The notes beneath the pieces were generated by a model. That model saw nothing but the letters and a program-made list of their open reading frames with translations, searched no databases and was not told the DNA's origin. Made by a program: the position numbers and the translations under genes. A DNA stretch of 64,000 bases from Alphaproteobacteria bacterium. GTDB taxonomy: Bacteria > Pseudomonadota > Alphaproteobacteria > UBA828. The stretch is taken from assembly GCA_965221125.1 (NCBI GenBank), contig CBDCRW010000004.1, positions 704,001-768,000 of the forward strand. Direction: 5' to 3'. Positions 23,683-58,762 of the stretch are shown here, piece after piece. The first letter of the stretch is position 1. Every line of letters starts with the position of its first letter.

Positions 23683-23802
23683 TGGAGGGAGTAACTTCGG
23701 GGTTATTCTAGAGCCGTCTTGAACACGAAGGAAGCGTGAAATACAAGGAAAATCAACCTCCTGATCCTTTATGATCTCTCCTGACCACGAACCTAGACCA
23801 AA

Positions 23803-23847
<45 letters not shown>

Positions 23848-40736: not shown

Positions 40737-42711
40737 CGGCCCTGGCCCGGCGGGAGTTCCGTCCCCCGGGCCTCTCTTTGTCGTTCAGTGAGAGGCCAAG
40801 ATTACGGACGCTCCCCGCCGCCGCCAAGCTGTGGAGCCGTGGACGCGTCCTGCGGACCGATCGGCGTCCTGCGGACCGTGTGGACAGCCCGTGGACAAGC
40901 TGGCGCTTGCCCACCGCCTGACCACACTCGCCGATCTCGCGCCCACCGCTCCACAGCTTCAACAGCAATGAGGATTCTGCTGAGGATCAAAAAAATGCCG
41001 CAGGCAGCGTCCTTCCCGCACTCGGCCACCATCCCGGGAAATCCACCAACCAATCAAAGTGAGAAAAAAACCCGTGCTTCTATCCGGCTAGACCGGAAAA
41101 CAACAGCTGAGGTCCTCGCCAGAAAGCCAAGAATGCTCACGCCATCGGATGTCGACGGTCTTGCGGGCAGCCGGGTCGAAGGATATTTCGCCGTGGCTGT
41201 GAGCTTCCCTCTTCCATGCTGGGTATTGGTGCCCGTGCAGCGTCTGGCCTCACGCGAGTCTCCTTCGGGCATGGCGCTCCTAAGAGCCTTGAGCGACAAG
41301 ACTTTCAGCGCGGAGTGGACGAATGAGTATGTTTCGCTGATTCGTCGATCAAGTCGTGATGTGATTGATCGGTCATACGACCAGCTGGTGCAACGAGCAA
41401 TGGACGGGCGGGGCCTGTAGAGTCGTACCTAGGTTCTCCGGGTGTTGTGGCGCCACTCGGTGCGCTTCGGTAACTGCTCCCTGACTTCTTCGAGATGATC
41501 GACGGATTTGATTCAGTCGTCGTCGACGGAGTCGGTATCATTACCAGAATAGGCGTATCGGCTTTCGTACGGCGCGAGAGCACGGCACAGGAATTTCTCG
41601 ATTCGTGTCCCCTGCTTCGGGACGGCGGGGAGGCCGAGCGGCTCGGACACGCTCTCGGCCCCGTGCGACCGTGGTGCTCCGGGGCCCTCTCGCCCTTGGT
41701 TGGCGTTATGTCGGGCGGGCGAAGAGGGTCGTGTCCGCAGACAGGGGAAACCAGTCGAATCTTCCGGTCGAGGACCTGGGACGGTGGGAAGGCCAGACCC
41801 GAGGGCATAGTATGGGTTGGCGGCGACGGGAGAATTGCTGTGGCGGCGCGATGCGAGGGAGCAGAAAGGCCGGACCGTACAGTGGGCTCCCGCATCGTCT
41901 GACAGACGCCATTGGCGACCGCGCGATGTGGAAGCACTGGTGGACGGCTAGCCGAGCGTCGGAAACGTCGCTCGCGCTCGAGGCCGGCGGCGTTGCCGGG
42001 GACGGGATCGAAAATCCACGTGATCCGCGTGTTTCGTGCTAACGGTCTAGCGGATGCGCACTATCGGTGTGCAAGATGGACGAGGCGCACCGGGACCACG
42101 ACGATCCGGGGAGGGAACGGGTGAACAGGGCTGACGTCGCCGGTCGTGTCCGTCGGCGAGACCGAATCGGACCCGTCAGCAACGAGTGACAGGCGAGGAG
42201 GTGGGTGTTGCGGATGTTGAAGCCCGGCGACTACGGTACGATGATGGCTGTCCGGCTTGGCTGCTCAGCTTGCCGGGAGGAGCCAAGCGGGCACCCCGGG
42301 TTGACGGCAGGCAGCCTTCACGGCTACCGCTAATGTGGCGAATGAGGCCGGAACACGGCAGGGGGCGGCCATCTTGCAGTTGCCGGTTCCTCTCAAGGCC
42401 TCAACGGTATAGGCTGATCAACACTACTGCCGAGGGCTGACAGATGTCCACGCGCCCTTGCCGAGAAGGCAAAGTCAAGTCCGGACGTACACATGCCGGG
42501 AGTGCCTCCAGACAGACCGCGACGACCAGGGGACTTGGTGCTGCACGCGCAACCACCATCGCCCTGAACGTGCTGCCAAAGCGCTTTCGCGTGTGCTTGT
42601 GAACCCATCTCGCGTTGACGTACGTCAGATACGCCAACTCCTTATGCACTCACCACACAACCGCCACGTAAAGTATAGCAATCGCGAATGCACTTCGAGG
42701 AAACAGCCATA

Positions 42712-43173
42712 ATGACTTCAGATAGTCCGCCATTCAGGCTTTCCCTCTGGAAAGATTACGTGCCGCAACGAACACTTATTGCGACGCAAGTTGAAGGAAA
42801 TAGCCAGGAACCGAAGGTAATTGTTCAAGAAAATTTACAAGAAGAGATTTACTCGTGGCATACACTAGAAGATCCGTTTGGTGGTGTTACCGACTCCGAG
42901 CTACGACAAAAGCTTCGCCACGCTCTTGTGGAGCGCTTGAATCCGTCACTTCCACCGTCTCAGAGGGGTATTGAAGTACTCGAGGAATTCGCACGGCTAG
43001 CGGGAAAGGCTATCGTCGATCGTAAGGTAGAATGGGTCTGGGGACACGGTGCTTCCCAGCATAACGATGCGATGGTAGAGCCACTAAACTCCTTATTGGC
43101 ACTCAAGTTGCATGTGGATTGGCTTCTGGCCTGCTTCATTGCGCGACCCGGAATCTCGGTGTCGGTACGATGA
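42712..43173 (+). CDS. Hypothetical protein, first gene of eight-gene operon
   Basis: GAGGA RBS; stop overlaps the next ATG. Confidence 0.75.
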   Translation: MTSDSPPFRLSLWKDYVPQRTLIATQVEGNSQEPKVIVQENLQEEIYSWHTLEDPFGGVTDSELRQKLRHALVERLNPSLPPSQRGIEVLEEFARLAGKAIVDRKVEWVWGHGASQHNDAMVEPLNSLLALKLHVDWLLACFIARPGISVSVR

Positions 43174-45218
43174 TGTCCTTTCATCTGAATTCACCCGCAG
43201 AAGCAGAAGCGGCGATAGCTAATCTTCTCAAGGAGGAATATTCCAAGCCAAATGGTCAATGTTCCATTTGCGTTCGGGACGATGGTGCCTTTTTGAACCA
43301 AGAATGGCTCAATCTTGGTGTCCTTTACTTTCCTGACTTGCCAAAGGATTCCGATGACTTGGAAGAGTATGAGGCGTGGCAAAATCTTGTGAAACTCGGA
43401 GCGTTCGAGTGGCATATAGCGGACTATAAGGCGATCGAAGAAAAATTAGCGCATTTGCTTGGCCATGAGATCGGCAAGGGTGATTTTCATTTGGGTACTC
43501 TAACTCGCGATATCTCATGTATTGCGGTGAGGACCGGCTTGTTGCTGCCTACATTCGATCCGGCGGCGCTGGACGAGATGCCCTATCGTCGATCAACGAC
43601 TATCATATCAGATACATCTGGTGTAGTACAGGGTGGTCTGGACTTTGTTGCCTCACATCTGAGTCCTGCTGCCAGAATAAAGGTTCCTTCAATCGTGCAT
43701 ATGGAGTTGGTTGGCGCCGCTGAGAACTACTTTAGTCTTCGCAGAGCTTCTAAGACCAAGAATGCCGCGCGCCGCCGTAAGGAACTTGTGGAACACTTAA
43801 AGAGCCAAGGCGGACAACGCTCATTGCTGCGTCTGGAGCTTCACCAAAGTACGGAAGTCGAGCGCACGTTTTTGCTCGGCGACCCGCTGCGGGAAGCTTT
43901 TGCAACAGATAACGACCGTGAATTGTCTGGTCTAAACATTAGTTTGGCAATTAGGTCTTACGCAGACCGTCTAATTTTAGAAGCGGCCCGTCAACATCAA
44001 GCGCATATGGGCCCCGGGCATGAAGTGCGACTACTAACCGCGGATCAGGGTTTGGCTAGAATGGCGTTAGCAGAGGGCATCCGGCCTTTATATTTCGGGA
44101 CAATTGACGCGGGAAGATTTTTTGGCAACTGCTTGACTGGAAGAACTTTTGACCCGTACCAAGGATCGGTGCAAGGGATCTCAATAGCGACGGTACTTTG
44201 GGAATTTGCTACGGCGTTTGGTTCAGCGCGACTGCAAGGGAAACAGACGGGGAGTGAGTTTTGCGTTTCGGCGCTTGGAGAGGATATGTCGTGGGCACCA
44301 TATCATTCCTTAGAAGACCTGCTTTGGTGTCGTCGGACCAATGGCGCGCCCAAGACCGACCCATCCAAAGTTGCCAAGAGGGAGGCTCGGGCCAAGGGGG
44401 ATGATCACGGCGAGGGGGTGGCTAAGCGGCCGAGCCGTACTACGACCTACCGACGCTTTGATGTCTCGAAGTTAGTCCGGCTGGTTTGCGAGCTGGATGA
44501 CGTACAGAAAATGGACGAAGAGGCAGTTGTAGGGATTGTTCAAACGAAGCATACCCGAGGGTTCCAGGAATACGAACGGTTTTTGTTGTCAGGAGGATTT
44601 ATCTCAGAGTCAGGAGGAATTTGGACTGCGGAGCCTCCCCTAATGGATATGTCCGCGGCGCTTCGGAACGAGAACGTGGAGGCTGTTCGTGACTTGTTGG
44701 GCGCTACACCTTCTTTCAGCGACTTCATGGGACTGCTTGGGAATGCAGGCCTCGGGGAGCCGTTGGATACGGAGTTCGCCGGTCGGAGCTCATCCACCTA
44801 TCGAACGTTGGGCGAAATTGTGCATGTCTGCGCCGCGGTTCGGGGAAAGGGGATTTACTCGACGGCGACCGTGCCGGATGCAGAGGGCTTTGCGGAGATC
44901 GCGCTAAAGCGGTTTCGCCAGCTCGACAAAGGCGACGGGTTGGTGTCCACGGGCAAGTGGCTGGAAACGCTTGTTGCAGAGGACGGCATTCATCCCGAAG
45001 TAGCTCGGAAGCTATTGGAGGAAGCAAGACAAAGACGCTTGTTGCGAAGGTCGACAGAGGGATCGACGATGCAAATGCGGTATAGAACGCACATCGTGCA
45101 TATCTTGCGGGTGGTATCCGGTGTTCCGACGGTAGTTCCTGTGCACCTGTATAGGGGAGATTACCTGATTCAGGGCAAGGCCAGTGCGAGCTTGCGGATT
45201 GAAGGAGGCGATCAATGA
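43170..45218 (+). CDS. PIN-domain nuclease-like protein with extended C-terminus
   Basis: PIN acidic motifs IISDTS, VHMEL, ADRLIL, LLTADQGL. Confidence 0.72.
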   Translation: MMSFHLNSPAEAEAAIANLLKEEYSKPNGQCSICVRDDGAFLNQEWLNLGVLYFPDLPKDSDDLEEYEAWQNLVKLGAFEWHIADYKAIEEKLAHLLGHEIGKGDFHLGTLTRDISCIAVRTGLLLPTFDPAALDEMPYRRSTTIISDTSGVVQGGLDFVASHLSPAARIKVPSIVHMELVGAAENYFSLRRASKTKNAARRRKELVEHLKSQGGQRSLLRLELHQSTEVERTFLLGDPLREAFATDNDRELSGLNISLAIRSYADRLILEAARQHQAHMGPGHEVRLLTADQGLARMALAEGIRPLYFGTIDAGRFFGNCLTGRTFDPYQGSVQGISIATVLWEFATAFGSARLQGKQTGSEFCVSALGEDMSWAPYHSLEDLLWCRRTNGAPKTDPSKVAKREARAKGDDHGEGVAKRPSRTTTYRRFDVSKLVRLVCELDDVQKMDEEAVVGIVQTKHTRGFQEYERFLLSGGFISESGGIWTAEPPLMDMSAALRNENVEAVRDLLGATPSFSDFMGLLGNAGLGEPLDTEFAGRSSSTYRTLGEIVHVCAAVRGKGIYSTATVPDAEGFAEIALKRFRQLDKGDGLVSTGKWLETLVAEDGIHPEVARKLLEEARQRRLLRRSTEGSTMQMRYRTHIVHILRVVSGVPTVVPVHLYRGDYLIQGKASASLRIEGGDQ

Positions 45219-46336
45219 GCCTACGAGATAAGCTTCAGCAGGCGCGACGCTCCAGCGAGGGCTCGCCACGGGGGATGTTTGAGCGCTTCGGAGTAACAGC
45301 GAATCCGTTCCCTGCGGCAAGCCAAACGTCGGGGAATCCTCATTATCCGCAAGAAGAAGCAGATGAACTGGCGGAAACGCAAATTGCTGCGTTCGTAAGG
45401 GACAATAGGTCACAGAGCTTGACTGTCGTCGGTTCTCAAGGAGTAGGAAAGACGAATTTTCTAAATTATTTTGAAGAACAATTGACTGATGTCGCAGACG
45501 AATTAGAGGGTTACTATGTTGTTCGATACCTAGCGGATCCTGAAAATACGTTTGATGGCACAATTCACAAATTGCTTCAAGAGTTAGGCGCAGAGCATTT
45601 TGCGAGACTAGCAGAATCGTTGAGTGAGGATCAAAATGCGATACGAGTGGCACGAAGTCAAGATCTTCAGACAGCACTACGTAGGCTTGCAGAAACAGAT
45701 GAGAATGAAGATAGAGCAGAAACTATTGAGTTGATGCTGGCTTGGCTGTTAGGACACCGAGTCCTAAAGATACATCGGGAATGGCTAGGAGTGAATTTTC
45801 GACAAGATACAGTCGAGGCAAAAACTGCGACTTTTCGTGATATCGTAGAAGTGAGCAGCGAAGCGGGAATTCTAAAGGGAATTTTTTTGCTGTTAGACGA
45901 ACTGGAAAAGCAGGATGGCGTTTTGGGCCCGAGAGCAGTGGTAAGATACCTGTCGGCAATCAGGGCGATTATTGATGCCTTGCCGCGAGGCTTGTTTTTG
46001 ATGCTGGCGGTGACGCCGGATGCGCTATTGCGATACACTGCTGCACTGCCAGCGTTACGCGGAAGACTGGAAAATCAGGTAGTATTGGAAGCTTTGCAAG
46101 ATGAAGAGGAAGCAGTAGAACTGGCAGAGTTCTATATCGACAAGGCTCGCGAGAAGGCAAGGGAAGATCGTAATCGGAGGGGAGGAAGTGAAGAAATCTT
46201 GTCGAGGCGTAAGATTGAGAAATGTTTTCAGACGCTTTGGGAACGAGCGGAGGAAAGAGGAGATGACGGTGTCAGGCAACGAGAGTTCTTGAACGCACTT
46301 CATCTTCGTACCGAAAAAGAGCTGCGGGGAGATTGA
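45215..46336 (+). CDS. P-loop AAA+ ATPase
   Basis: NPFP, Walker A GSQGVGKT, Walker B LLLDELE, PALRGR. Confidence 0.88.
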   Translation: MSLRDKLQQARRSSEGSPRGMFERFGVTANPFPAASQTSGNPHYPQEEADELAETQIAAFVRDNRSQSLTVVGSQGVGKTNFLNYFEEQLTDVADELEGYYVVRYLADPENTFDGTIHKLLQELGAEHFARLAESLSEDQNAIRVARSQDLQTALRRLAETDENEDRAETIELMLAWLLGHRVLKIHREWLGVNFRQDTVEAKTATFRDIVEVSSEAGILKGIFLLLDELEKQDGVLGPRAVVRYLSAIRAIIDALPRGLFLMLAVTPDALLRYTAALPALRGRLENQVVLEALQDEEEAVELAEFYIDKAREKAREDRNRRGGSEEILSRRKIEKCFQTLWERAEERGDDGVRQREFLNALHLRTEKELRGD

Positions 46337-46369
46337 AGCAGTGGAGACGAGTGATAGCCTAGGGATGGA

Positions 46370-47845
46370 ATGAGTGGTGTGAGCGAGGACGGGATGGCGG
46401 CTGTAGCAATCGAAAAACAAGATGGAAGCGCGGTCGGGAGAAATACGCCAAATTCTCAGCAAGGGGCACAAACGAAGAGGACAGGGAGGGGATTCGTGAT
46501 AAGCGGTGCTCCAAGGCTGGTAGTGTCTGGGCGAATTCGTAGGGAGTCCGAGAAGCACGATCCAGATCGGGAATATCGGTTTGGTTATGCTGATGAACAC
46601 CATTCGGAATTACCGCACGTGGTCAAGTTCTCGGGTGGCAGATCGAGTGGCATGCTGCTGTTGACACTCTTGGCAAATGACATACTGAAGGCCGAACGAG
46701 GGGATGTCGTGTTGTTCAATAATACGGCAAGCGAGCATCCCCAGACTTACGACTTTGTAAGAGAGTGTAAGGCAGTAACGGAGCAGTACGGTATTCCTTT
46801 CTACCTTGTGGAGTTTCAGACCTATGAAGACGCCCGCAAGGGCGAGTGGACACGGCTGCCGAGCTACCGCCTCGTGAATAGCAAGCCGTGGTCAGAAACG
46901 AATCCGGACGGGGTCCATTGGCGGGGCGAGGTTTTCGAGGAGGTGATGTCGTGGTCGGGGTTCGTGCCAAACCAGTTCCGGCGTATCTGCACGACTAACA
47001 TGAAGTTGGGTGCAACCCGTATGTTCCTGCGCGACTGGTTGGCTTGCAAAGAGTCGATTCCGCGGCTTGGACACTTCGGATCGGGGTGCCGTATAGACGG
47101 GAAGGCTATGTATGCGCGTCACAGGCGCAACGGCGGAGAGGTGCCCGAAGAAATCTACATTGCCAAGAAGCGGTATGGCTGGAGCCGTCCGTATGTCCGG
47201 CCAGAACAGCGATACGAGAGTTTTTCGAAGGCATGGCGACCGTTCGAAAACAAGTGGCTAGCGGGCAAGGCGCATGGCGACCTGGCGGTGTTTGGCAAGG
47301 GAGGCGTCGAGTATGTGGCGTTTGTCGGCCTGCGTTGCGATGAGCCCGCAAGAGTCGGAAGGGTGAAGGAACGCAATAATGGGCCCGAAGCATCCGGATA
47401 CGATGGCGAGCATGTGTACATGCCCCTCGTGGACATGCACGTGGCGGCAGCGGATGTGAATGCGTTTTGGGCCCGACAGGAGTTGGACCTATGTTTGCCC
47501 CCGGACAGTGGGCTCTCGAACTGTGTGTACTGCTTCTTGAAAGGCGGTGCGACGCTGCGGAAAGTGCAACGTGAAATGGCGGGCGCGAAGCGCCAGGAAG
47601 CTCGGCTAGGCTACGGTCCACTCGACGGGACGCCGTGCGACGTCGCATGGTGGCAACGCATGGAAGAGGTGTACGGGCGCGACCTCGTAGCGGAGGAGCG
47701 GAAAATTCAGTCGGAGTTGGAGCATGATTTCCTGGGCTTCTTCGGTGCGGGAAGCCGATTTACGTATCGGTTGCTCGGAGAAGCCGACGAATCGGAGTTG
47801 GAGCAGTTCGACGCCAGTTTGTTGCCCTGCGATTGCACGGACTAG
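46370..47845 (+). CDS. PP-loop / PAPS-reductase-like protein with Cys clusters (probable Fe-S)
   Basis: FSGGRSSG, NTASEH..TY.F, RICTTNMK, GLRCDE..R, SNCVYCFLK, C-terminal PCDCTD; true start may be downstream. Confidence 0.85.
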   Translation: MSGVSEDGMAAVAIEKQDGSAVGRNTPNSQQGAQTKRTGRGFVISGAPRLVVSGRIRRESEKHDPDREYRFGYADEHHSELPHVVKFSGGRSSGMLLLTLLANDILKAERGDVVLFNNTASEHPQTYDFVRECKAVTEQYGIPFYLVEFQTYEDARKGEWTRLPSYRLVNSKPWSETNPDGVHWRGEVFEEVMSWSGFVPNQFRRICTTNMKLGATRMFLRDWLACKESIPRLGHFGSGCRIDGKAMYARHRRNGGEVPEEIYIAKKRYGWSRPYVRPEQRYESFSKAWRPFENKWLAGKAHGDLAVFGKGGVEYVAFVGLRCDEPARVGRVKERNNGPEASGYDGEHVYMPLVDMHVAAADVNAFWARQELDLCLPPDSGLSNCVYCFLKGGATLRKVQREMAGAKRQEARLGYGPLDGTPCDVAWWQRMEEVYGRDLVAEERKIQSELEHDFLGFFGAGSRFTYRLLGEADESELEQFDASLLPCDCTD

Positions 47846-47847
47846 AC

Positions 47848-48987
47848 GTGGCGGAACGGCCGGTCTATCTGGATTGTCAAGCCACGACGCCGCCTGACCC
47901 GAGAGTGGTCACGGCGATAGTCGAAGCGTTTGATGCATTCGGGAACCCACACGGGCGTCAACACGTATACGGGCGAACGGCGGCGGACGCCATAGACGTG
48001 GCTCGGAGTCGGGTGGCCGGACTTCTGAACACGTACCCCAATCGAATCGTATTCACATCCGGAGCAACGGAATCCTGCAACCTCGCACTGCGGGGCGTGG
48101 CGCGCGCCGCCGCTCCCAAGCGACGGCGTATCATTACACTCGCTACAGAACATGCGGCGGTGCTCGAGACTGTAGAGGATCTAGGACGACACGGTTTCGA
48201 GGCGATCGTCTTGCCGGTCAGGCCGGACGGGCTCGTAGACCTCGATTGTCTCGACCAGGTGGTCGACGACGAGACGCTGATCGTTTCCGTCATGGCAGTG
48301 AACAACGAAATCGGTGTGATCCAGCCGCTCGCCAAAGTCGCTTCGATCTGCCGGCGCTATGGCGCACTGTTCCATACTGATGCAACGCAAGCGCCCGCTC
48401 GCATCGAAGTGGATGTCGAGACTTGGGGAGCCGACCTCTTGTCGATTTCGTCGCACAAGCTGTACGGACCAAAGGGCATTGGGGCGCTGTACGTGGCCGA
48501 TGACGGATTGCTTGGACCCACGTTGACCGGAGGTGGTCAAGAGCGTGGCATGCGGTCGGGAACAGTGCCGACGGAGCTCGCGTGCGGCTTCGGAGAGGCT
48601 GCGGAGCTGGCCGGAGACGAGCGGCCTGCTGACGCCGAGCGGATGACTCGTCTTGCCGCCAAGTTGCGGACCGGTATCGATGCGATGGAGGCGGATGTAC
48701 GCTATTTCGGTTCAGACAAGGAGCGGGCGCCTGGGACGTTAAACTTTGGGTTCCCTGGGATCTCCGGCGACAAGCTCGTTGCGATGGTGGAGACCGAGAT
48801 TGCGATCTCGAGCGCCTCCGCGTGTTCCTCCGGAACTGCAGGAGTTTCTCATGTGCTAGCCGCGCTTGGTTGCGGCCGGTCTGAAGCACTTACCGGCGTG
48901 CGTGTGGGATTGGGCCGATTTACGACGGAGACAGACATCGAGATTGCTTTGACGGCGATTGGTCGGGCGGTAGGTACGGCTGCATGA
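47848..48987 (+). CDS. Cysteine desulfurase (IscS/DndA/SspA-like)
   Basis: YLD.QATT, FTSGATE, HTDATQ, SSHKLYGPKG (PLP Lys), SSASACSS (catalytic Cys). Confidence 0.93.
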   Translation: MAERPVYLDCQATTPPDPRVVTAIVEAFDAFGNPHGRQHVYGRTAADAIDVARSRVAGLLNTYPNRIVFTSGATESCNLALRGVARAAAPKRRRIITLATEHAAVLETVEDLGRHGFEAIVLPVRPDGLVDLDCLDQVVDDETLIVSVMAVNNEIGVIQPLAKVASICRRYGALFHTDATQAPARIEVDVETWGADLLSISSHKLYGPKGIGALYVADDGLLGPTLTGGGQERGMRSGTVPTELACGFGEAAELAGDERPADAERMTRLAAKLRTGIDAMEADVRYFGSDKERAPGTLNFGFPGISGDKLVAMVETEIAISSASACSSGTAGVSHVLAALGCGRSEALTGVRVGLGRFTTETDIEIALTAIGRAVGTAA

Positions 48988-49000
48988 AGAGATTGGGACG

Positions 49001-51313
49001 ATGGGATTGAAGCGAGCGATCATCGACGAGATGAAGGTGAAGCAGCTGCGCAAGGCGGTGCAGCAACTGGAATTGGCTGTTGATAGCTATAGGGACAAGG
49101 AATCACTTGCCGGTGCTCTCAGAAAGTCGCGTCGAGCTACAGCCGAGACGTTGGTGGAATTCCTGTCCGAGAAGGACGTAAAGCGGCTGTGCGATCGTCA
49201 GGGGGTTGAGTCGAGGGGACGTCGGCGGGAGCTGATAGCGCGGCTGTTGGAGTCAACGGGTACAGCCTCTTCAGCCGGGGACTCTGGGGAGACGCAAAGA
49301 CCAAGGGCAGGAACGAACGCAAGAAGGCGCCGGACGCGGGGCCGATCGAGTAAGGCTGCACCTGACCTCCTGTTCGGCCACAGTACGGATCGTACTGGGT
49401 TCACGCCGGCAGGAATCGCCGCGTTTTCGGATCTCAGACCGGCTGCGGTAGTGCGGGAACTCATTCAGAACTCGTTGGACGCAGCCTTGATTGAGGCTAA
49501 CGAAGCCTGCGCGGTCGTAAGGTTTGAGCGAAGTACGTGCACGTTAGAGGAAATCCCGGGAATCGAAAGTTACCGTACGGCGTTTGAGCGAGCTGTGGAG
49601 GAGCAAACTCCTTCTGGTAGTGCACGCTCCGTAGTTGAGCGGATACGGCGGACATTACTAGAGGAATCGCACGATCTGCTGTGTGTTATCGACAACGGAG
49701 TGGGGCTTGACGGCAGGCGAATGTCGGCTTTGCTGAGTGACGGGGTGAGCGACAAAGGGGGCAACGCTTCTGGGACTTTCGGCAACGGACACTCGGCGGT
49801 GCTTCCCGCATCGAACCTCCGGTATGTGATGTACGGTGGGCTAACGGCCGATGGTCGCACCTATGGTGCCGGCCAAGCGGTGCTGGCGTCGCACCGGGAC
49901 GAGGGTGATTGGCGCAGTCGATCTGGGCGCGGGGTATATCTGGAGTCATTTAAGCCTAGTGCGGTCGACGTACCGTTCACTCTGGCCTCTGAAGATGCAA
50001 TCCCGCCGATGGTCGTGTCCGCGATTAACAGGATTCGTGCTTCGTACGGACACGGGGCGGCGGTGGTTATCCCGGCGTTTAATAACTTTGAGCACGTGCA
50101 ATCTTTGCGAGAGGCAGTGTTCAAGGCAGCTAGTTTTAACTTCTTTCAGGCGATTCAGGAAGGACGTCTGGTGGTGGAGGTGGAGGATCAGGAGGAAAGC
50201 GGTGTACTCGACACGCTGAGGTTAAGGGAAGTGCTTACGCCGTATCGCGACGAAATGCGCTCTGGTCGTTCGGGTGCGTTTCTTTCCGGACGAAAGGCAA
50301 ATGAAGCCTACGAAACTCTCGTCAATGGGGAGGAACACGAGATTGAGACTACGCAGGGAAACGTAGCGGTGCGCTTGCTTTGCCGGGAAACGGGTCGGCG
50401 TAGCGTGGGGCTATGCAGGAACGGGATGTGGATTACGGATGACCTGCCGATGTTTCAGAACGCGTTTGCGGATCGACAGCCATTTCAGGCGCTGATCCTA
50501 CTCACCTCGGATCGCGAGGATGGTTTCTATGAACTAATTCGAGAGGCGGAGACGCCGCTCCACGATAAGCTGGCGCCGAAACAGATGGACCCAGTTCGAA
50601 GAAAGGCTCTTCGGGACGCGCTGCGTGAGATTCGGGATGGGATCGCGGAATTGGTCCCGCCTTCGACAGAGGACGTTTACAGCCCAAAGGACATCTTGGC
50701 CTTTCAGTTTGAAGATGTAGAGGGGCAGGGGCGAGGTGGCCGCCAGCCGTCCTTTTGGGGCCGGGTGGGAAGCACTCGACGGTCGACGCTGGTGAGGCGG
50801 AAGACAGGGAAGCGGGAGGCTGGAGGAACCGGGGAAGGCGGCGGCGGCGGAGGAGGACGCAAGAAGCGTGAGGGACGGATTGTGACGGAGCGGATATTCC
50901 GGATCGCTTCGGTGCCCACCGACGAAGGTGGGCGCACAGTTCATGTGGAATGTACAGAGGAGTTTGAGGACGCAGAATTGCGGGTATTCGTAGACGAGAA
51001 CGTGGATGCGACTTGCGATCGGCAAACACGTGCTCAGGCGGCGGCGGTGTTGCTGTCGAACGTGAAGGTGGATGGACGCCCGTTGTCTGAGGAAGAACTG
51101 ATCGGAAACGACGACGGGACTGTGGGTGCGAAGTTGGGTTGCCTGCAGGCAAATGCGCGGGTCGTGGTGGAGACCGAGTATGCGATACCTGCAGCGGCTA
51201 TGCGTCTCCCAAGTGGACAAGAGCCCGCACTTCGGTTCGAGGTACAAAGCAGTCGACGGGTTTCATCCAAGGACAGTAGCGAAATTGATGACGAGGTGCT
51301 GTCCGATGGATGA
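49001..51313 (+). CDS. GHKL-fold ATPase-like protein with N-terminal SAP-like domain
   Basis: LCDRQGVESRGRRRELIARL (SAP-like); N-box RELIQNSLDA, G1 IDNGVGL, G2 GTFGNG. Confidence 0.78.
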   Translation: MGLKRAIIDEMKVKQLRKAVQQLELAVDSYRDKESLAGALRKSRRATAETLVEFLSEKDVKRLCDRQGVESRGRRRELIARLLESTGTASSAGDSGETQRPRAGTNARRRRTRGRSSKAAPDLLFGHSTDRTGFTPAGIAAFSDLRPAAVVRELIQNSLDAALIEANEACAVVRFERSTCTLEEIPGIESYRTAFERAVEEQTPSGSARSVVERIRRTLLEESHDLLCVIDNGVGLDGRRMSALLSDGVSDKGGNASGTFGNGHSAVLPASNLRYVMYGGLTADGRTYGAGQAVLASHRDEGDWRSRSGRGVYLESFKPSAVDVPFTLASEDAIPPMVVSAINRIRASYGHGAAVVIPAFNNFEHVQSLREAVFKAASFNFFQAIQEGRLVVEVEDQEESGVLDTLRLREVLTPYRDEMRSGRSGAFLSGRKANEAYETLVNGEEHEIETTQGNVAVRLLCRETGRRSVGLCRNGMWITDDLPMFQNAFADRQPFQALILLTSDREDGFYELIREAETPLHDKLAPKQMDPVRRKALRDALREIRDGIAELVPPSTEDVYSPKDILAFQFEDVEGQGRGGRQPSFWGRVGSTRRSTLVRRKTGKREAGGTGEGGGGGGGRKKREGRIVTERIFRIASVPTDEGGRTVHVECTEEFEDAELRVFVDENVDATCDRQTRAQAAAVLLSNVKVDGRPLSEEELIGNDDGTVGAKLGCLQANARVVVETEYAIPAAAMRLPSGQEPALRFEVQSSRRVSSKDSSEIDDEVLSDG

Positions 51314-52169
51314 GGTTGTGACAGAGGCGAGATCGCCAAATGCCGCGGTTCGGGGGCATGCGTTTCCGTCGCTGGAGTCGGGAAATACCTCTTTTCCGGA
51401 TGGACGATACGTAGTGGGATTCGAAGCTGGGGCTGACGCGAGTTCGTTTACTGTGAGGCATCGCATTGAGGGGGCTCCGCTGATTAACGACGTGATTACA
51501 GGCGGGCTCGCACAGTTCGTCTGCACGGTGGCCTCCCCAAACTCTTCGTATCGAGTAAGCCATGTGTCGGATGCCAGCTCCCACGTGATTGGTTGGCAAA
51601 GCGTGGATCTTGGCGAGCCGCCGATGTTCACGCCGATGGTAGTTGTTGCAAAACCGTTTACAAGGACGCTGGAATCGGCAAGAGACGGTGTCCACGAGCT
51701 CTGGCACGGTCGGACAGTCGCATTCCAACGAGGCATGAGGCTTGCGTTGAGCGATGTCGTGCTGATGCGTTCATCGGTTTTGAATATGTTGCTGTTCGAG
51801 CGGGATCCCGCGCTTTCAAATGGCGAGTTCCGTGTTGAGGCGGAGGATCGAGAGGGATTTCGATTTCGTGCGTATCTTGCCCCCGATCTTCACCAATTCC
51901 TAAGGTATGACACTGAAGACTTGCGGCGAAGTCACATCGTAACGCACATAGTGAGCGCGTGCTTTGGCGTGCTGAAGGCGGATTATGCGGAAGACGAGGA
52001 GGAAGACGGCGGTTGGCGGTCCTATCGCGGTCTCCAGGCTTTGGGGGAGATGTTGAAGGAACACGGTTTGCCGCACTGGTCAGAGGACGACTTCTCGCCG
52101 GAGTTGGCTGCCACCAAACTTTACCCGCACCGGGTCGATGAATCTCCCGGTTCAGCCGGAGAGGACTGA
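51306..52169 (+). CDS. Hypothetical protein
   Basis: Start overlaps the previous stop; beta-rich N-terminus after HAFPSL. Confidence 0.8.
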   Translation: MDEVVTEARSPNAAVRGHAFPSLESGNTSFPDGRYVVGFEAGADASSFTVRHRIEGAPLINDVITGGLAQFVCTVASPNSSYRVSHVSDASSHVIGWQSVDLGEPPMFTPMVVVAKPFTRTLESARDGVHELWHGRTVAFQRGMRLALSDVVLMRSSVLNMLLFERDPALSNGEFRVEAEDREGFRFRAYLAPDLHQFLRYDTEDLRRSHIVTHIVSACFGVLKADYAEDEEEDGGWRSYRGLQALGEMLKEHGLPHWSEDDFSPELAATKLYPHRVDESPGSAGED

Positions 52170-52177
52170 GACAATCC

Positions 52178-53056
52178 GTGTACGCTGAGTTCGATGATGC
52201 GGGATACACCAAACTACGTCGATCGCTGATCCGAAAGGCGGCCAAGGGTTCTATTGCTCAACGGTCGTTTCTTGAGGCGGTACGCGATACCGGTAGGTTT
52301 TTGGCGCACATGAAGGACGTCGTAGGCGTACAGGAAGGTGAGGAACTGGAGCCGCTGGCGGATCGAATGTCGGAGGCAGAGTTCGGGAATCCACCTTCTG
52401 ACACCGAGCGGCGCCTGTTCGAGGCCTGGGGTGGGTTGACACCGAGAGTTGCTTGTCGAACGGCATTTTGGGCACGCGTGACCTACCGGCACATTGAGAA
52501 CGGGCGGATAGAATCATCGTTCTTAGCGGCCAATGGTGGTGGCAACGTGAGCGGCGTACAGCGCATCGATGAAGCATTGAGTTCCACTGGCGAGAAAGCG
52601 ACTTTGGAGCTGGATAGATGCGTACGAACGGTGCTCAGGCGGCTCGGTGGATTGCCTGAGGCGCGCGGGAATCGATCAGTCTACGTGAACTGCCCACTAG
52701 CACGGGCTTGGTGGCGGGAACGTTTGGTCGCGGAGATGGCGGGGGACGATGGTGACGATCTGGAACGGCAGATTCGCGCCGTGGTGCATCCCGAGAGCCA
52801 ACAATATTGGGAAGAGTTGGTAACTTTCGTTGTGTCGAGAAACTCGGTGTTCGGTTCGGTATCGGTTCGAGACACCTTAATTCGCACCCTCGCCATGGTC
52901 TTGGATGATAATCCTGATTCGCCAGTGCGAACGGCTGATGAACTAAGGCGTGTATGCCGATCTGTGAGCTCCATACAGGCGTCGGTCGAACTGAGTGTCG
53001 TGCCACCCCAGGAGGTGCAAACCATGATGCGGGGAATTGTCGAGGCTGTGGCGTAG
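52178..53056 (+). CDS. Hypothetical helical protein (possibly DUF6339-like)
   Basis: AFWA..T and LARAWW motifs; last gene of operon; family by resemblance only. Confidence 0.7.
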   Translation: MYAEFDDAGYTKLRRSLIRKAAKGSIAQRSFLEAVRDTGRFLAHMKDVVGVQEGEELEPLADRMSEAEFGNPPSDTERRLFEAWGGLTPRVACRTAFWARVTYRHIENGRIESSFLAANGGGNVSGVQRIDEALSSTGEKATLELDRCVRTVLRRLGGLPEARGNRSVYVNCPLARAWWRERLVAEMAGDDGDDLERQIRAVVHPESQQYWEELVTFVVSRNSVFGSVSVRDTLIRTLAMVLDDNPDSPVRTADELRRVCRSVSSIQASVELSVVPPQEVQTMMRGIVEAVA

Positions 53057-53067: not shown

Positions 53068-54252
53068 TCATTGCACCGTGGTTTTGTCAGCACTCTGAAC
53101 GGACGACAGGTTCCCACCGATGCTCCCGGTGATCCGCGCGGCAGCGTTCTGGATGGAATCTCGGGCGAGGTGAGCGTACCGGGCGGTGGTCTGCACCTGC
53201 GTGTGACCGAGCAGCTTCCCGATCATGGTCAGGCTCTCGCCGAGCGCCAGCGCCCTCGAAGCATACGAATGACGAAGGTCGTGAATTCGCACGTCCTCCA
53301 GACCGGCGCGAGCGCGGATGCGGCGCCAGGGGCGCTGGAGATCGGTGATGTGGGAGCCCGGCAGCCTGCCGCGGATGACCCAGGGGTTGTCCTCCTCGCG
53401 GGGCACGGCCGCCAGCACGGCGCGGGCCTCGGGTCCGAGCGGCACGACCCGTCCGCCGGTCTTCGCGTCGGGGAGTTCGATGCAGTCGTCCTTGACGTAT
53501 TCCCAGCGCAAGAACTGGATCTCCGATAGCCGGCAGCCGGTCAGCAGCAGCAGACGGAAGGCGGCGACTGCGGAGGGCATCTCGCTCTCGGCCTCGGCGA
53601 GAACCTCGCCCAGGCGCTCGGTCTCCTCGGGCGAGAGGAACCGCTCGCGCTTGCTCTCCTTGTAGCGCTTGACGTGACGGCAGGGATTGGACCCGTCCGG
53701 CCGCAGGCCCCAGATTTCGGCGAGCGAGAACATCTTGGAGAGCACGCCGAGCGTCCGGTTCGCCTGGTAGGGCTTGTCGCGAAGGTCGAAGTGCAGCTTG
53801 GCGATGTCCTTGCGCTCCACGCCGGCGATCCGCATCTCGCCGATCGCGGGGTCGATGAACAGCTCCACCGACCGCCGGTATTCCCCCTGGGTGCTGGGCT
53901 TGCAATGGACGGGGACATACTCCTCGAGGAAGCGCCTGCCGAGATCGGCCATGACCGGCTCGGCCTCCGGCTTCGCGTCGGCATCGCGCGGGTCGATGCC
54001 CTTCTTCGCCTGGGCCAGGATCTCCAGCGCCGCGGCTCTCGCCTCGTCGGCGGTGATGCGCCCGTGCTGGCCGATGGTGAACCAGCGCAGCTTGCCGCGG
54101 ACGCGGGTCTGAAGGACGTAGTTCTTCCGACCCGACTTCCGGACGCGGAGGCCGAAGCCGGTCAGCTCCCCGTCCCAGTAGATAGTATCGGCGCCGTTGG
54201 CCTTGACGGCCTCGACGGCGCGTCTGGTGAGCTTGGGGATGCGGTTTGGCAT
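53068..54252 (-). CDS. Tyrosine integrase (island 3)
   Basis: TGCRLSE, IHDLRHSYAS, LLGHTQVQTTARY; adjacent to att 3. Confidence 0.95.
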   Translation of the reverse strand: MPNRIPKLTRRAVEAVKANGADTIYWDGELTGFGLRVRKSGRKNYVLQTRVRGKLRWFTIGQHGRITADEARAAALEILAQAKKGIDPRDADAKPEAEPVMADLGRRFLEEYVPVHCKPSTQGEYRRSVELFIDPAIGEMRIAGVERKDIAKLHFDLRDKPYQANRTLGVLSKMFSLAEIWGLRPDGSNPCRHVKRYKESKRERFLSPEETERLGEVLAEAESEMPSAVAAFRLLLLTGCRLSEIQFLRWEYVKDDCIELPDAKTGGRVVPLGPEARAVLAAVPREEDNPWVIRGRLPGSHITDLQRPWRRIRARAGLEDVRIHDLRHSYASRALALGESLTMIGKLLGHTQVQTTARYAHLARDSIQNAAARITGSIGGNLSSVQSADKTTVQ

Positions 54253-54292
54253 GGGACAAAATTCTTGACGTTGGAAGAGCAGTCTAGCAAGC

Positions 54293-54312
54293 TGGCAAAC
54301 TATTGGCAAACA
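54293..54312 (+). promoter_or_regulatory. Putative arm-type sites of integrase 3, right end
   Basis: TGGCAAACTATTGGCAAACA identical to 23918-23937. Confidence 0.7.
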
Positions 54313-54441
54313 CTTTGGATGGTTTCGCAGCGCAGGAAAGGCGGCGCATGCGTCCGCAAAAATTATGAAAAGGCCAATATATCAGCAGTTTGTCAACATT
54401 CAGTCGTCGTCAGCGCATCTGAGACGCAGTTTGTGGTCACA

Positions 54442-54486
<45 letters not shown>

Positions 54487-54880: not shown

Positions 54881-56104
54881 CTACCCGTTGCGCCGATTAC
54901 GTTCCGCCTCTGCCATTTTTGGCGTGAAGACGGTGAATGTGTCCTGCATGATCGTCTTGTCCGCGCAGGGGTGATGCAGGCCCAACAGGTCGTTTTCACC
55001 AATTACCCGATATACCGTGTAGCCCTCGCCCACACCCTTCAGGCACATTGGAGTGATGTCTTTCTTGACGTACCGGAGGGTGTGATCGAAGCGGGTGGAC
55101 GAGCCCCCTCGGTCGAGCGGACATTCGATCATGGCCCTTTGCAAGCCGGTGCCGTCCAGGCCCTCTTCCGACTCTTCCGAACGGTCAACGACTCTTTCGA
55201 ATAGTGCTCGGCCTACAGTGACAACGCACGGCAGGGCGAATTTGGTCGCTCGGAAGAATCGATCCACCTCCCAACCGATGTAATCGGTTCGAAATGCCGT
55301 GATTAGCCGTCTCCCATCTGCCATGAGGCTGCCTGCGTGGAGGCGGTTCCCCAGCTCGATGAAGTCCTCGTTGTTCGAGCTTTCCCCGGTACCGATGATT
55401 TCCGGCAGGCGCTCCGTCACGAAATCGCACCGTGGCCCGCTGACCTCGAAGGCGTCGTCCAGAATGTCCATATAGAACTTGAGCGGCAGATTCCTGATCT
55501 CGAACGGTCGGTCGCCAGGCTCTTCGTCGTCCGCGGCGGACGTCCAAAAGATCGCACGGCCGGCGACAGCGAGGGCGGAATGGAACAGGCGGGCTGCCAA
55601 AGACCGCAGCTTCCACAACTCGTCCTCGCCGACCTCGTACAGCAGCCAGATCTCGTCTCCGATGCCCTTGACCACAAAGGCATGCTTCCAATCCCAATCC
55701 AGCCCGCAGTGCCCGTCTTGAAACAGCTGCGTGTAGAATCTCCACTCTGACAGCAGGAATTGCCGGTGGAACGCCTTGTACCATTCGGCTAGTTCCTCGT
55801 CGTTGCGCGCGCACGCCCTCATTGTCGCCTTTGCCTCCGTGGAGCCGCAGACGTCCATCGAGATCGATATCACCGTCGTTCGACCGCGGCTCTCCTCCTT
55901 TGGTTCGGGTCCGGGCAATTGCGCACGCAACTCCTGGAGGAGGCCACGACGTTCGGGTTCGGGCTCCCGGCTTGCCATGAAGTCGAGGCACCTCGCCATC
56001 CGCTCCCGATCGTTCGGGGATGTCACAGCAGCTTCGGCAGCACATGCTGCGAGCGCGGCGTCCCTGCTGACTTCGTCGTCTCCAGATCTCCCGTGCACCG
56101 CCAT
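54881..56104 (-). CDS. Class III nucleotidyl cyclase-like protein
   Basis: SMDVCGST (first Asp), VKGIGDEIW (second Asp), DYIGWEVDRFFR, LKGVG. Confidence 0.6.
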   Translation of the reverse strand: MAVHGRSGDDEVSRDAALAACAAEAAVTSPNDRERMARCLDFMASREPEPERRGLLQELRAQLPGPEPKEESRGRTTVISISMDVCGSTEAKATMRACARNDEELAEWYKAFHRQFLLSEWRFYTQLFQDGHCGLDWDWKHAFVVKGIGDEIWLLYEVGEDELWKLRSLAARLFHSALAVAGRAIFWTSAADDEEPGDRPFEIRNLPLKFYMDILDDAFEVSGPRCDFVTERLPEIIGTGESSNNEDFIELGNRLHAGSLMADGRRLITAFRTDYIGWEVDRFFRATKFALPCVVTVGRALFERVVDRSEESEEGLDGTGLQRAMIECPLDRGGSSTRFDHTLRYVKKDITPMCLKGVGEGYTVYRVIGENDLLGLHHPCADKTIMQDTFTVFTPKMAEAERNRRNG

Positions 56105-56108
56105 GGCC

Positions 56109-57371
56109 TCAAGGGCGATCCAGGAATGGGGCCCTTTTGGGCGAAGTGCCTCGACAATGTCTGCAGTCTCCGATGCGCGACCAGTACGTGGCCGCCGTCG
56201 GGCGCACGAGCTTCGCGAAGTCGATGTCGAGCCGGGCCACCGTGGCTTCGAGCTCGGGCCGGGCCTGGGGCTCGAAGGCGAGCTGGCCCTTCACCGTGCG
56301 CGCGACGCAGGCCGCGAACAGCGCCTGCTTGTCGGGCTCGGGCAAGGCCCTGAGCGCCGCGAAGGATTCGCCATCGTCTGCGATTGTCAGCCAGTCGAAC
56401 GGCAGGTGCGAGCGGTCCGCCAGCATCGCCTCGCCCGGCGACCAGTCCGCGAAATCCTCGTCGTTCATGCGGATGTTGGGCCGGTCCGGGGTCTCCTTGA
56501 CCGCGATGTCGAGGGCGTGGTCGTGGTAGCCCGGCGCGAACACCGAGCGGCCCATCTGGAACAGCGCGAGGTCGAAGGCGGCCTCGAAGTCGCCGGCGAG
56601 ATAGGCCTTGATGAGCGCGGTGCGGATCGCGCGCTGGTCGTCGGCGTGGCCGATGCCGACGCCCGCCTCCTTGCGCGCCTCGGCCTCGCGGTCCCTGGGC
56701 GACGCCATCGGCGTCGAGACGGACGGACCGGAGGTGTGAACGCCATGACCGGCAGTGTGGACGTCGTGGGCAGCTGCGTCCGGGTCGTGGCCATTGCCGG
56801 CCGAGGTTGCCGCGCTGCCGGGCCCCGCCTGCTTCGGCATGTCCTCGGGCTTCACCAGCCCCTGAACGACCTGAAGCGAGCCGTCCTGGGCGACGGTGAC
56901 GATGCAGCCCGCCATGCGGTGGACGATCGAGCGGTCCTGCTCGCGGTTGCCACAGGCGATGATCGCCGCCCCGGGCGGAGCCTCGTACTCGCCGATCTTG
57001 CGCTCCAGGCAGAACTGGAAAAGCGCGACCTGCACCATGGGGACGGAGGACGGGAGCTCGTCGAGGTTGACGAGGAACTGCGAGACGCTGTCGGTCGGCG
57101 GAAGGAATCCGGGCGGCGCCCAGCGTGTGCGGCCGTGCTCGTCGCGCCACGGGATGCCGCGCAGGTCCACGGGATCGAGGAGGGGGCCGCGGATGTCGAT
57201 GTACTCGTAGCCGAGCCGGTCGGCGGTCTGGTTCGCGACCTGACTCTTTCCGGTTCCCGGGCCGCCCCAGACCATGCAGGGCTGGCGGGCCTTGACCAGG
57301 GTGGCGAGGACTTCGGCGAGCTCGCTCGGGCGCAGCGTGTAGTCGGCGGAGATGGTTTCGGGAAGGGTCAT
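56109..57371 (-). pseudogene. Deletion fusion of MoxR AAA N-half and C-terminal part of ParB-like protein
   Basis: GGPGTGKS...ACGNRE..VHRM joins directly to AGCIVTVAQDGSLQVVQGLVKPED, which matches the late part of the 29265 ORF. Confidence 0.78.
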
Positions 57372-57628
57372 GGGCGGTCTCCGGATGGCGGGGAAGCGGG
57401 GCGGCCCGGACATCCTCCGAGCCTCGTCTGAACGCGCCCCGGAAGGGCCCACTCCCCTCCCGTGGGAGTTGCGGCAGGCGGGAGAAGCGGGTTACGCGCG
57501 TGGAGGGCGACCGGGCGAGAGTCGGGGCAAGGGCTGGTGGACAGCAGTGGCCGGTCGCGAGGGCGTCGAAACGGTCGGTAGTGCCAGGCCCATTGCCGCC
57601 CCGGCAGGCAGGGTGCTAGATATCGGCC

Positions 57629-57919
57629 ATGCGAACCTGGAGCGACAACATCGAGGCCGTCGCGCGCGCCCTCTGCGAGAAGATGCTGGCGCATGACGGC
57701 GTCAGCGAGGAGCAGCTCGCCGCCGACGTCGACATGTGGTGGCACCAGGTAGCGGCGGAACTTGAGTGCGGGGTCATCGACGAGGCCGGCGAGTATGTCG
57801 GCGGCGAGATCGACGTGAAGCGCAAGATGGCCGGCTACCGCGACTGGATGCGCCGCCATCCCGGGAGCCGCGCGGTCTGGGAGACCGCCCGACACGGGGC
57901 GCCGCTACCTCGAAACTGA
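57629..57919 (+). CDS. Hypothetical protein (96 aa)
   Basis: Globular-looking ORF between the PAPS-reductase and AAA genes. Confidence 0.55.
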   Translation: MRTWSDNIEAVARALCEKMLAHDGVSEEQLAADVDMWWHQVAAELECGVIDEAGEYVGGEIDVKRKMAGYRDWMRRHPGSRAVWETARHGAPLPRN

Positions 57920-58762
57920 GGCGGCTCGGAACCGCGCCGGGCGGTCCCCATTCAGGCCTCGGGGCGGGAGCGGCGTGGGTACGGCGCCGTCGACCGGAAT
58001 GCCCGTCAGCTCCGGCAGAAACTTCCGCGTGGGCGAGAGCGTGTGGGCGATTCGCCGTTCGAGTTGCGCGTATTTCGCGTAGAGGCCCGGACGAAGCTCA
58101 GCGGCGCGTCGCAGATCGCCGCGGGACGCCAGGATGCAGAAGCTGCAACTCAGCCTCGACATGCCGGCGGCGTAGGCCCGGTGCGGCGATTGGCCGGCGT
58201 GACGGATGACGCGGAACACTTCTTCCGTCGAGAGATCGAAAACCGGCAGCCAGTCGAAGACCTCGCGGCCCGCGACGCTCATTCGCTCGTTGCGCCGCCA
58301 GCGCGTCTTCCTGGCGCGCGCCGGGCTTTCCTCCGCGCGCATGCCCATGGCGTTGACGAGCCGCCCGCCGAAGCGGGGATGGGTCTTAAGATAGCGGCGC
58401 AACTCGCGCTGGATCGGGCCAGCCTTGTAATCGCTGGTACACCATCGCGCCGAATTCGAGGGCCAGAGACCCCGTTCCTCGACCCGTTCGAGCAAGGTCT
58501 TGCCGGACGCGACGGGGGCGAATATCAGCGGCACGCCAGCGGGAAGCGTTGCCTCGATATGCTCGATGGTGCCCGGCCACTCGACCTCGCCGAGCGGGGC
58601 GTGAACGGCCACGATCTGGTCGCGGGGAACGATCCGGGACAGCAGGATCGTCATCGCCTGCGAGTCCTTGCCACCGCTGGTGTTGATGGCGACGAGGGCA
58701 CCGGCCCGGATCATTTGGTTGCACCGCGGCGGCACGGGAACATCGGCGATGCGGCTGGACAT
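57905..58762 (-). CDS. PAPS-reductase-family (PP-loop) protein
   Basis: TSGGKDSQ, RWCTSDYK, GMRAEESPAR, GMSRLSCSFC. Confidence 0.9.
   Translation of the reverse strand: MSSRIADVPVPPRCNQMIRAGALVAINTSGGKDSQAMTILLSRIVPRDQIVAVHAPLGEVEWPGTIEHIEATLPAGVPLIFAPVASGKTLLERVEERGLWPSNSARWCTSDYKAGPIQRELRRYLKTHPRFGGRLVNAMGMRAEESPARARKTRWRRNERMSVAGREVFDWLPVFDLSTEEVFRVIRHAGQSPHRAYAAGMSRLSCSFCILASRGDLRRAAELRPGLYAKYAQLERRIAHTLSPTRKFLPELTGIPVDGAVPTPLPPRGLNGDRPARFRAASVSR

Follow-up and report, generated by a model that had tools for sequence, protein, structure and literature searches.

In a 64,000-nucleotide window of the genome of an alphaproteobacterium of the UBA828 lineage (contig CBDCRW010000004.1), we have analysed a stretch of eight genes, named here g1 to g8, for which a sulfur-based defence role had been proposed from the sequence (the original prediction). 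We found that the conserved unit consists of five genes, g4 to g8, and not of all eight. These five genes encode a PP-loop enzyme of the 3'-phosphoadenosine-5'-phosphosulfate (PAPS) reductase superfamily, a cysteine desulfurase, a GHKL ATPase and two accessory proteins. On balance, we lean towards the view that they form a new GHKL-type module for the sulfur modification of the cell's own DNA, probably by phosphorothioation (PT), which would supply the mark (the 'M' half) in a modular defence resembling restriction-modification. This proposal draws on the conservation of the five genes, the families of their domains, their partner genes at related loci, methylase fusions and the mobile-island context. 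The genes are organized as follows.

42688-43173, plus strand: g1, 161 amino acids, no domain match in library scans
43119-45218, plus strand: g2, 699 amino acids, PIN-like
45215-46336, plus strand: g3, 373 amino acids, BrxC/BrxD-like AAA+ protein
42688-46336, plus strand: g1-g3 together, a separate three-gene cassette outside the conserved core
46370-47845, plus strand: g4, 491 amino acids, PAPS-reductase-superfamily PP-loop ATP-pyrophosphatase, probably an iron-sulfur (Fe-S) enzyme that inserts sulfur; core
47833-48987, plus strand: g5, 384 amino acids, cysteine desulfurase of the IscS/NifS/DndA type; core, but missing from some variants
49001-51313, plus strand: g6, 770 amino acids, ATPase of the GHKL (Bergerat-fold) type, its N-terminal extension SAP-like below threshold; core
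51306-52169 (open reading frame (ORF) listed from 51126), plus strand: g7, 287 amino acids, no Pfam family, distant PDC-M33B relative; core
52178-53056, plus strand: g8, 292 amino acids, DUF6339 family, invariant Arg-rich block; core

Several structural features noted in the original prediction are in agreement with our data. The eight ORFs (42688-53056) are all on the plus strand and overlap or are separated by at most 33 bp; a tyrosine-integrase-like ORF follows on the minus strand; and PADLOC, Pfam and NCBIfam scans revealed no methyltransferase among the eight proteins. The GC content is lower than that of the flanks (∼69.5%) in both blocks, with 51.2% for g1-g3 and 58.4% for g4-g8, and the GC at third codon positions (GC3) is 43-54% in g1-g3 versus 60-66% in g4-g8. 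The start of g7 was placed at 51306 because its homologues (264) are consistently ∼287 amino acids long. A promoter and terminator scan of the stretch gave signals at or below shuffle level.

To define the conserved unit, we compared 40 loci related to g4: 7 from a set with one genome per species, 31 from metagenome contigs, in which the same organism may have been sampled twice (L013 and L022, like L014 and L015, share identities), and 2 more (G063, phylum sample). A g6 homologue adjoins g4 in 31 of them, mostly together with g7 and g8. Eight of the nine other loci are interrupted by contig ends, so that the presence of g6 is undecidable there, and the ninth (L012/L063) contains a truly solitary g4-like gene. 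Three gene orders were encountered: that of the window, g4-g5-g6-g7-g8; g6-g7-g8-g4, in which g5 may be present or not; and g4-g6-g7-g8. The desulfurase gene g5 is not beside g4 in L028, L029 and G063. The identities of g5 to g8 track that of g4, with Spearman coefficients of 0.81-0.93 for loci that are not independent. The hosts include metagenome-assembled genomes labelled Gammaproteobacteria, Pseudomonadales, Vicinamibacterales and Thermodesulfobacteriota, with g4 identities of 50-81%, and g4 was found in only 1 of the 400 other genomes of the phylum of the window (the phylum sample). This sporadic distribution across phyla and the rarity within its own phylum indicate that the g4-g8 cassette moves horizontally. 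At L063 9248-12777 (minus strand), the solitary gene encodes a 442-amino-acid protein keeping all the motifs; it adjoins a topoisomerase-III-like gene, with a ParB-like gene nearby, and hints at a clade of the g4 family that is carried by plasmids or conjugative elements and that also includes the C5-methylase fusions described later in the text.

While the co-occurrence expected from the original prediction was found for g4-g8, it was not for the first three genes, as g1-g3 accompany g4 in none of the 40 loci. In genome G403, homologues of g1, g2 and g3 form a contiguous trio 4.5 Mb from the core (locus L005), which is itself already paired with a DUF262 partner. These observations and the difference in GC content argue against a single eight-gene unit, and likewise against the proposal that the PIN and AAA proteins constitute the effector arm of the system. 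The g2 family comprises at least 525 proteins, and g2 was found in none of the 400 other genomes of the phylum sample. Concerning the domains, the AAA ATPase call is supported by the match of g3 to Pfam BrxC_BrxD PF10923 (32.2 bits, cut-off 22.2), whereas the PIN nuclease call is borderline: g2 falls just under the cut-off of PIN_4 (21.5 bits, cut-off 21.9), and PF13638 is present on 10 of the 120 homologues listed. The trio (a 161-amino-acid unknown, a ∼700-amino-acid PIN-like protein and a ∼370-amino-acid BrxC/BrxD-like AAA+ protein), seen in the window and at L047 7275-11187, is a conserved cassette in itself that matches no PADLOC system. It may represent a defence candidate of its own that has not been described.

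The sequences of g4 and g5 point to a sulfur chemistry. In g4, the PP-loop reads SGGR[ST]S in 32 of the 33 family members and SAGRSS in 1. C207, C385 and C388 are invariant in all 33, C133 is kept in 30, and C487 and C489, which belong to a C-terminal PCDCT motif, are kept in the 32 members having a residue there. The best match in the defence library is to PADLOC SspD (E 3e-7, 28.5 bits), no individual stretch reaching the threshold by itself, and SspD matches are similarly weak for the g4 homologues of L007 and L036. BrxP of PADLOC is matched at 2e-5 over 67 residues, and the g4 family profile gave no match to PDB sequences. The PAPS-reductase-like call is thus consistent across SspD, BrxP, DndC and PF01507, but the matches are weak and that to Pfam is below the cut-off. 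The possibility that g4 is a DndC or an SspD proper was rejected. Judging from these comparisons, g4 is best regarded as a distinct family of the PAPS-reductase/PP-loop superfamily that is neither DndC, SspD nor BrxP. A HMMER pass over 1.84 billion representatives (50% identity clusters) retrieved 1428 g4-like sequences at E<=1e-3, 726 at <=1e-10 and 176 at <=1e-30. For g5, the IscS-like call is strong (PADLOC SspA 5e-129 and DndA 2e-127; Pfam Aminotran_5 4e-71), with scores below the NCBIfam equivalog cut-offs of both IscS (387.8 bits, cut-off 548) and DndA (340.9, cut-off 480).

The g6 protein had been described as a SAP-GHKL ATPase. The GHKL part of this description holds: g6 contains the motifs RELIQNSLDA, DNGxG and GTFGNGH, the Bergerat-fold motifs I (ExxxN..D), II (DxGxG) and III (GxxGxG) are invariant in 23 of 23 aligned sequences, and its profile matches Hsp90 (6e-4), MORC3 (0.02) and also MutL in the PDB. 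Invariant residues are E153, N157, D160, D231-N232-G233, G258/G261/G263-H264, R473 and G475-M476. The SAP part is less certain, the similarity being sub-threshold (E 0.0015, 18.5 bits, cut-off 23.9) and an N-terminal extension being present in only a few homologues. Among the 23 members of the g7 family scanned, no consistent Pfam family was found (3 weak matches, each in 1 member), and the matches of g7 to the PDB are at chance level. In the g8 family, 15 of 21 members match DUF6339 (best E 1e-8), and R150, R154, R163, W98 and W179 are invariant; g8 has no match among PDB sequences. In PADLOC, g6 and g7 have only remote relatives, which belong to PDC-M33, an untested phage-defence candidate. 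Its model PDC-M33A matches both g6 (3e-37) and the g6 of L029, a distant variant of the core (8e-43), and PDC-M33B matches the L029 orthologue of g7 (1e-9), whereas the g7 of the window has no PADLOC match at E<=0.01 and no PDC-M33 model matches g4, g5 or g8.

The original prediction had assigned to the GHKL protein the reading of the mark. We rejected this role, since 31 of 40 loci show g6 inherited together with g4, their order varying among three types, and since g6 also occurs with a C5 methylase in place of g4. This distribution fits a function in the writing or targeting machinery, by analogy with DndD or SspC.

The link with C5 methylases also provides an indication that DNA is the substrate. 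The protein P0416 is composed of a complete N-terminal C5 DNA cytosine methylase (M.HhaI 9e-35) and a g4-like domain (34% identity, 7e-80), and in P0413 and P0406 the C-terminal part of a methylase is fused to a g4-like domain. These fusions represent 3 of the 150 g4-like representatives listed, and in each of them the PP-loop and all five Cys are conserved. Moreover, genome G184, which is devoid of g4, carries the following operon (locus L068).

5588-11495, minus strand: C5 methylase, GHKL ATPase, g7-like protein of 278 amino acids, 249-amino-acid ORF, 401-amino-acid ORF

In this operon, the C5 methylase matches M.HhaI (5e-31), the GHKL ATPase belongs to the g6 family (1e-48) and the g7-like protein aligns with g7 in hhalign (94.5% probability, E 8e-8). 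The 249-amino-acid ORF has no significant similarity to g8 (2.4% probability), and the 401-amino-acid ORF is not g4-like. The G184 operon looks like a methylation-based sister system, possibly PDC-M33. Three pairings thus form a triangle, in which the GHKL/g7 pair is associated with g4 or with a C5 methylase, and the C5 methylase is fused to g4. This triangle argues that g6-g7, and probably g8, would serve to target DNA and could be combined with one modifying enzyme or another. According to the relevant passages of Rakesh, Aravind and Krishnan (PMC10853773), the same coupling logic applies to the DndD-DndE and CxC-ABC-DndE pairs.

We then clustered the ORFs flanking the 40 loci and scanned the recurrent clusters. 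The following partners were found.

8 loci (L002, L006, L014, L016, L017, L020, L022, L035): Pbe-like set
7 loci (L001 as a fragment, L003, L005, L007, L018, L036, L042): DUF262/GmrSD_N protein of ∼600 amino acids
2 loci (L006, L019): DndB (PF14072, 7e-24)
3 loci (L014, L015, L019): HNH/type IV-like protein (HNH_2 4e-11; PADLOC mREase_IV 4e-15)
5 loci: Methyltransf_23-like protein, sub-threshold

At least one of the Pbe-like, DUF262, DndB and HNH partners is carried by 17 of the 40 loci. The Pbe-like set includes a PbeA homologue (4e-150; ResIII/helicase), a PbeC homologue (3e-42; also DndD 8e-20) and a ∼680-amino-acid protein with a sigma-70 region-4 helix-turn-helix that no PADLOC model matches, and in L016, L020 and L035 its start lies at -28 to +33 bp relative to the core. 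A gene of ∼160 codons lies 3' of PbeC in L006 and L022; its product was not detected as DndE (in G404, the genome searched, the sole DndE match is ∼2 Mb away) and has no match among PDB sequences. The DUF262 partner has an invariant C-terminal HH..F..N..N motif (His-Me nuclease), is located between g5 and g6 in L007, hence inside the operon, and has no PDB sequence match either. The readers or effectors of the mark are likely to be these interchangeable partners seen at other loci, namely the Pbe-like proteins, the DUF262 nuclease and the HNH protein.

The g4-g8 cassette shares characters with each known PT system but corresponds to none of them. PT systems are Dnd, Ssp and BREX type 4, all with a P-loop ATPase, in the accounts given in parts of PMC12914056 and PMC12707154. 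In agreement with the original prediction, no DndB, DndC, DndD, DndE, SspB, SspC or PglZ/BrxZ model matches any of the eight proteins, and the comparisons support, as a proposal, a sulfur-modification module lacking the core proteins of Dnd, Ssp and BREX. Like DndABCDE, the cassette has a dedicated IscS-like desulfurase, a PP-loop enzyme with conserved Cys and a CTxxMK motif, an ATPase and small accessory proteins, and DndB- and Pbe-type neighbours are found at related loci. Some g4 variants have no desulfurase of their own, as is the case of the dnd systems that rely on IscS according to a section of PMC12914056. However, g6 is a GHKL instead of an ABC/SMC-like ATPase, and g7 and g8 are unrelated to DndE by sequence. 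The resemblance to SspABCD-SspE lies in the match of g5 to SspA and in the DUF262 and His-Me partner, which has the domain layout of SspE/GmrSD; yet SspB/DUF4007 and SspC are missing, and g4 is ∼200 amino acids longer than the 277-position SspD model. With BREX type 4, the cassette has in common a PAPS-reductase-family enzyme as modifier instead of a methylase, and a weak BrxP match, but g3, which lies outside the core, is matched by no more than Pfam's general BrxC_BrxD model. Finally, in the PbeABCD and CxC-ABC-ATPase-DndE systems a DNA-scanning ATPase pair may work with either PT genes or cytosine methylases, as described in PMC10853773, and the GHKL-g7 pair offers a parallel, accompanying g4/g5 in the window and a C5 methylase in G184; their scanning ATPase is of another fold, and the Pbe genes adjoin the core in 8 other loci and not in the window.

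The same proteins were searched in the whole genome of the window, which is 92% complete. No TIGR03183 (DndC) match was obtained at E<=1e-30, a model that is positive in 13 of 251 genomes, and no DndE (PF08870), which as a control was detected in 3 of 3 DndC-bearing genomes. For DndD (TIGR03185), two matches at the P-loop level only were obtained (E ∼7e-4, far under the cut-off). DUF4007 (SspB) was absent from this genome, in a search run without a positive control, and, at E<=0.1, from all the family members scanned (21 of g8, 23 of g7). BrxZ, BrxL and BrxC gave no PADLOC match in g1-g8; PglZ was not searched genome-wide.

In the literature, we found no description of the g4-g8 cassette, and none joining phosphorothioation or a desulfurase with a GHKL, MORC or HATPase protein as one system. 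No text on PDC-M33 or DUF6339 was found, the main text of the PADLOC preprint does not contain 'PDC-M', in PMC12137116, the one paper listed that contains both PT and a MORC, HATPase or Bergerat term, PT appears only in the reference list, and Iyer et al. 2008, on MORC in restriction-modification systems, does not mention PAPS or a desulfurase. A screen of DndC/SspD neighbourhoods is reported in PMC12914056 (Nat Commun 2026, BREX type 4); the screen required a P-loop NTPase. Small uncharacterised clusters that the paper mentions in Anaerolineales, Burkholderia lata and Sulfurimonas (the last with DUF262) might overlap the g4-g8 family.

The cassette is located in a mobile island. Its integrase side is characterized by the following features.

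53068-54309, minus strand: tyrosine-integrase-like ORF (an ORF call; the integrase label is that of the earlier reading, with no family-library scan)
677-1843 (plus), 22511-23638 (minus) and 53068-54309 (minus): integrase copies beside attachment-site repeats
54441-54486, plus strand: attachment-site repeat, a 46-nt tRNA-Met-like 3' fragment, beside the start of the integrase
23814-23847 (plus) and 415-448 (minus): exact 34-nt copies of the attachment-site repeat (0 expected by chance)

The repeat has only 3 copies in the assembly, each adjoining a copy of one integrase family. Taken over 46 nt, these exact copies lie at 415-460 (minus), 23802-23847 (plus) and 54441-54486 (plus). Besides the integrase at 53068-54309, two copies are in the window, and more than 40 tblastn matches were obtained across the genome, several as tandem pairs. 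The three integrase-linked attachment sites therefore indicate that g4-g8 occupy the integrase side of a segment no longer than 30.6 kb (23848-54486), in a tandem array of integrative islands. ARAGORN detected no whole tRNA in the window, and a default repeat search of the window did not flag the attachment-site repeat. The same island contains, in a low-GC patch, a gene for a 692-amino-acid Rad50/SMC-like ABC ATPase (34196-36274, plus strand; PDB Rad50 3e-7; weak P-loop similarity to DndD/PbeC). Beyond the integrase, a second, short PAPS-reductase gene (57905-58864, minus strand) matches PF01507 (1e-10), PADLOC BrxP (2.5e-18) and SspD (1.4e-11). After it on the minus strand come two unknown ORFs (56109-57452 and 54881-56104), which converge on the integrase. 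Further on lies a type III restriction-modification pair (59789-63999, plus strand), made of an N6_N4 DNA methylase (6e-32) and a ResIII/DEAD helicase subunit that crosses the end of the window. At a distance of 200 kb from the window, two genes lie at ∼4584-8150 of the locus L048 (G000:C4:955000-966000): the first is remotely g4-like/PAPS-reductase-like (30-33% identity), and the next encodes an 885-amino-acid protein with a ParB N-terminal domain.

For the chemistry, the position of the substrate, the complex and the defence phenotype of g4-g8, we infer the following scheme. The g5 desulfurase would take sulfur from cysteine as a persulfide, and g4 would activate the target with ATP and insert the sulfur through its Cys/Fe-S centre. 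The g6 and g7 proteins, together with the Arg-rich g8, would find and prepare the DNA sites, a role equivalent to that of DndD/DndE in Dnd and of SspB/SspC in Ssp. The mark would then be read by interchangeable partner modules. The general PT core outlined in PMC12707154 combines a PAPS reductase with an ATPase and with a component that recognises DNA; g4, g6 and g7/g8 could fill these three roles, GHKL being a third class of ATPase. The PT reading fits this general core as well as the island context and the type III restriction-modification neighbour.

Several observations weigh against a PT module with a defence function. The matches of g4 to the expected families are remote: PF01507 is reached at E 1.3e-3 (19.2 bits, cut-off 22.5), neither TIGR03183 nor, at E<=0.01, PADLOC DndC is matched, and an hhalign comparison with eight DndC proteins taken from TIGR03183 matches (66% probability, E 5e-5) covers the N-terminal 150 columns only, spanning the PP-loop and a shared CTxxMK motif (FRWCTxRMKI in DndC). 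In addition, sequence searches found no recognisable DNA-binding or nickase domain in g7 and g8, the methylase fusions point to the base rather than to the backbone, and the DUF262 partner is closer to HEC-05 models than to any model of SspE. Genes of the Pbe-like, GmrSD-like and HNH types also occur as defence genes in their own right, grouped in islands, and such modules are often functionally decoupled, as argued in PMC10853773. Finally, no Pbe-like, DUF262, DndB or HNH partner was detected by tblastn in the genome of the window, so that a defence function is putative here; either the module is an orphan modifier in this genome, or its partner is the neighbouring g1-g3 cassette.

The fusions of g4-like domains to base-flipping C5 cytosine methylases, the GHKL/g7 pair adjoining a C5 methylase and the distance of g4 from DndC, SspD and BrxP are also what would be expected if the same module, with the same logic, produced a thiolated nucleobase in DNA, for example a 2-thio- or 4-thio-pyrimidine. 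Among PP-loop Fe-S enzymes, TtcA and TtuA are known to thiolate the pyrimidines of tRNA, which lends this alternative some chemical plausibility. Nevertheless, the only role of the methylase domains may be to recognise the site, the Pbe and DndB partners are known from PT systems, and all three characterised DNA systems with a desulfurase and a PAPS reductase make PT, as stated in part of PMC12914056. We regard a thiolated base as unlikely, though it deserves serious consideration. In its boldest form, which seems to us no more probable, the cassette would write a mark new to cellular DNA, such as 2-thio-deoxycytidine, with g6-g7-g8 delivering g4 to specific sites here and C5 methylation in the sister systems.

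Somewhat more doubtful is that all eight genes form one system, with the PIN-like and AAA+ proteins of g1-g3 as an effector or abortive arm answering the sulfur mark. The genes are on the same strand, only 33 bp separate g3 from g4, and the core, which swaps partners elsewhere, has no other partner in the window genome. Furthermore, a 1439-nt contig of another sample (run X7) spans the g3/g4 junction with ∼95% identity, and the adjacency therefore recurs in close relatives; a 136,105-bp contig carries close homologues of both g2 (86%) and g7 (93%). In the reads of run X5, g4-g8 are covered and g1-g3 almost uncovered, the uncovered part being no evidence. These arguments are opposed by the 40 loci devoid of g1-g3, the remote trio of G403 with its DUF262-paired core, the GC and GC3 differences and the counts in the phylum sample (g2 in 0 and g4 in 1 of 400 other genomes). 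A function outside DNA appears quite improbable. PP-loop enzymes and desulfurases also carry out tRNA thiolation, and g7 and g8 are proteins of unknown function, so the cassette could thiolate tRNA or another RNA, or make a thio-nucleotide or thio-cofactor, its place in a defence island being incidental. However, this does not account easily for the DNA-methylase fusions of g4-like domains, the operonic DNA nucleases and helicases of related loci, the sporadic cross-phylum distribution at up to 81% identity, the island context or the dedicated GHKL ATPase with its SAP-like extension.

The reading of g4-g8 as a GHKL-type sulfur DNA-modification module has several implications. The g4 family is not rare in absolute terms, as it comprises 176 clusters (50% identity, E<=1e-30) and crosses phyla. 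The P-loop NTPase requirement of the latest PT screen, as set out in part of PMC12914056, would pass over a GHKL-based module. If the proposal is true, the orphan Pbe-like and DUF262 genes beside the core would be explained, the five genes would offer a compact tool for studying site choice, and sulfur marking of DNA would have been assembled more than once from one chemistry core.

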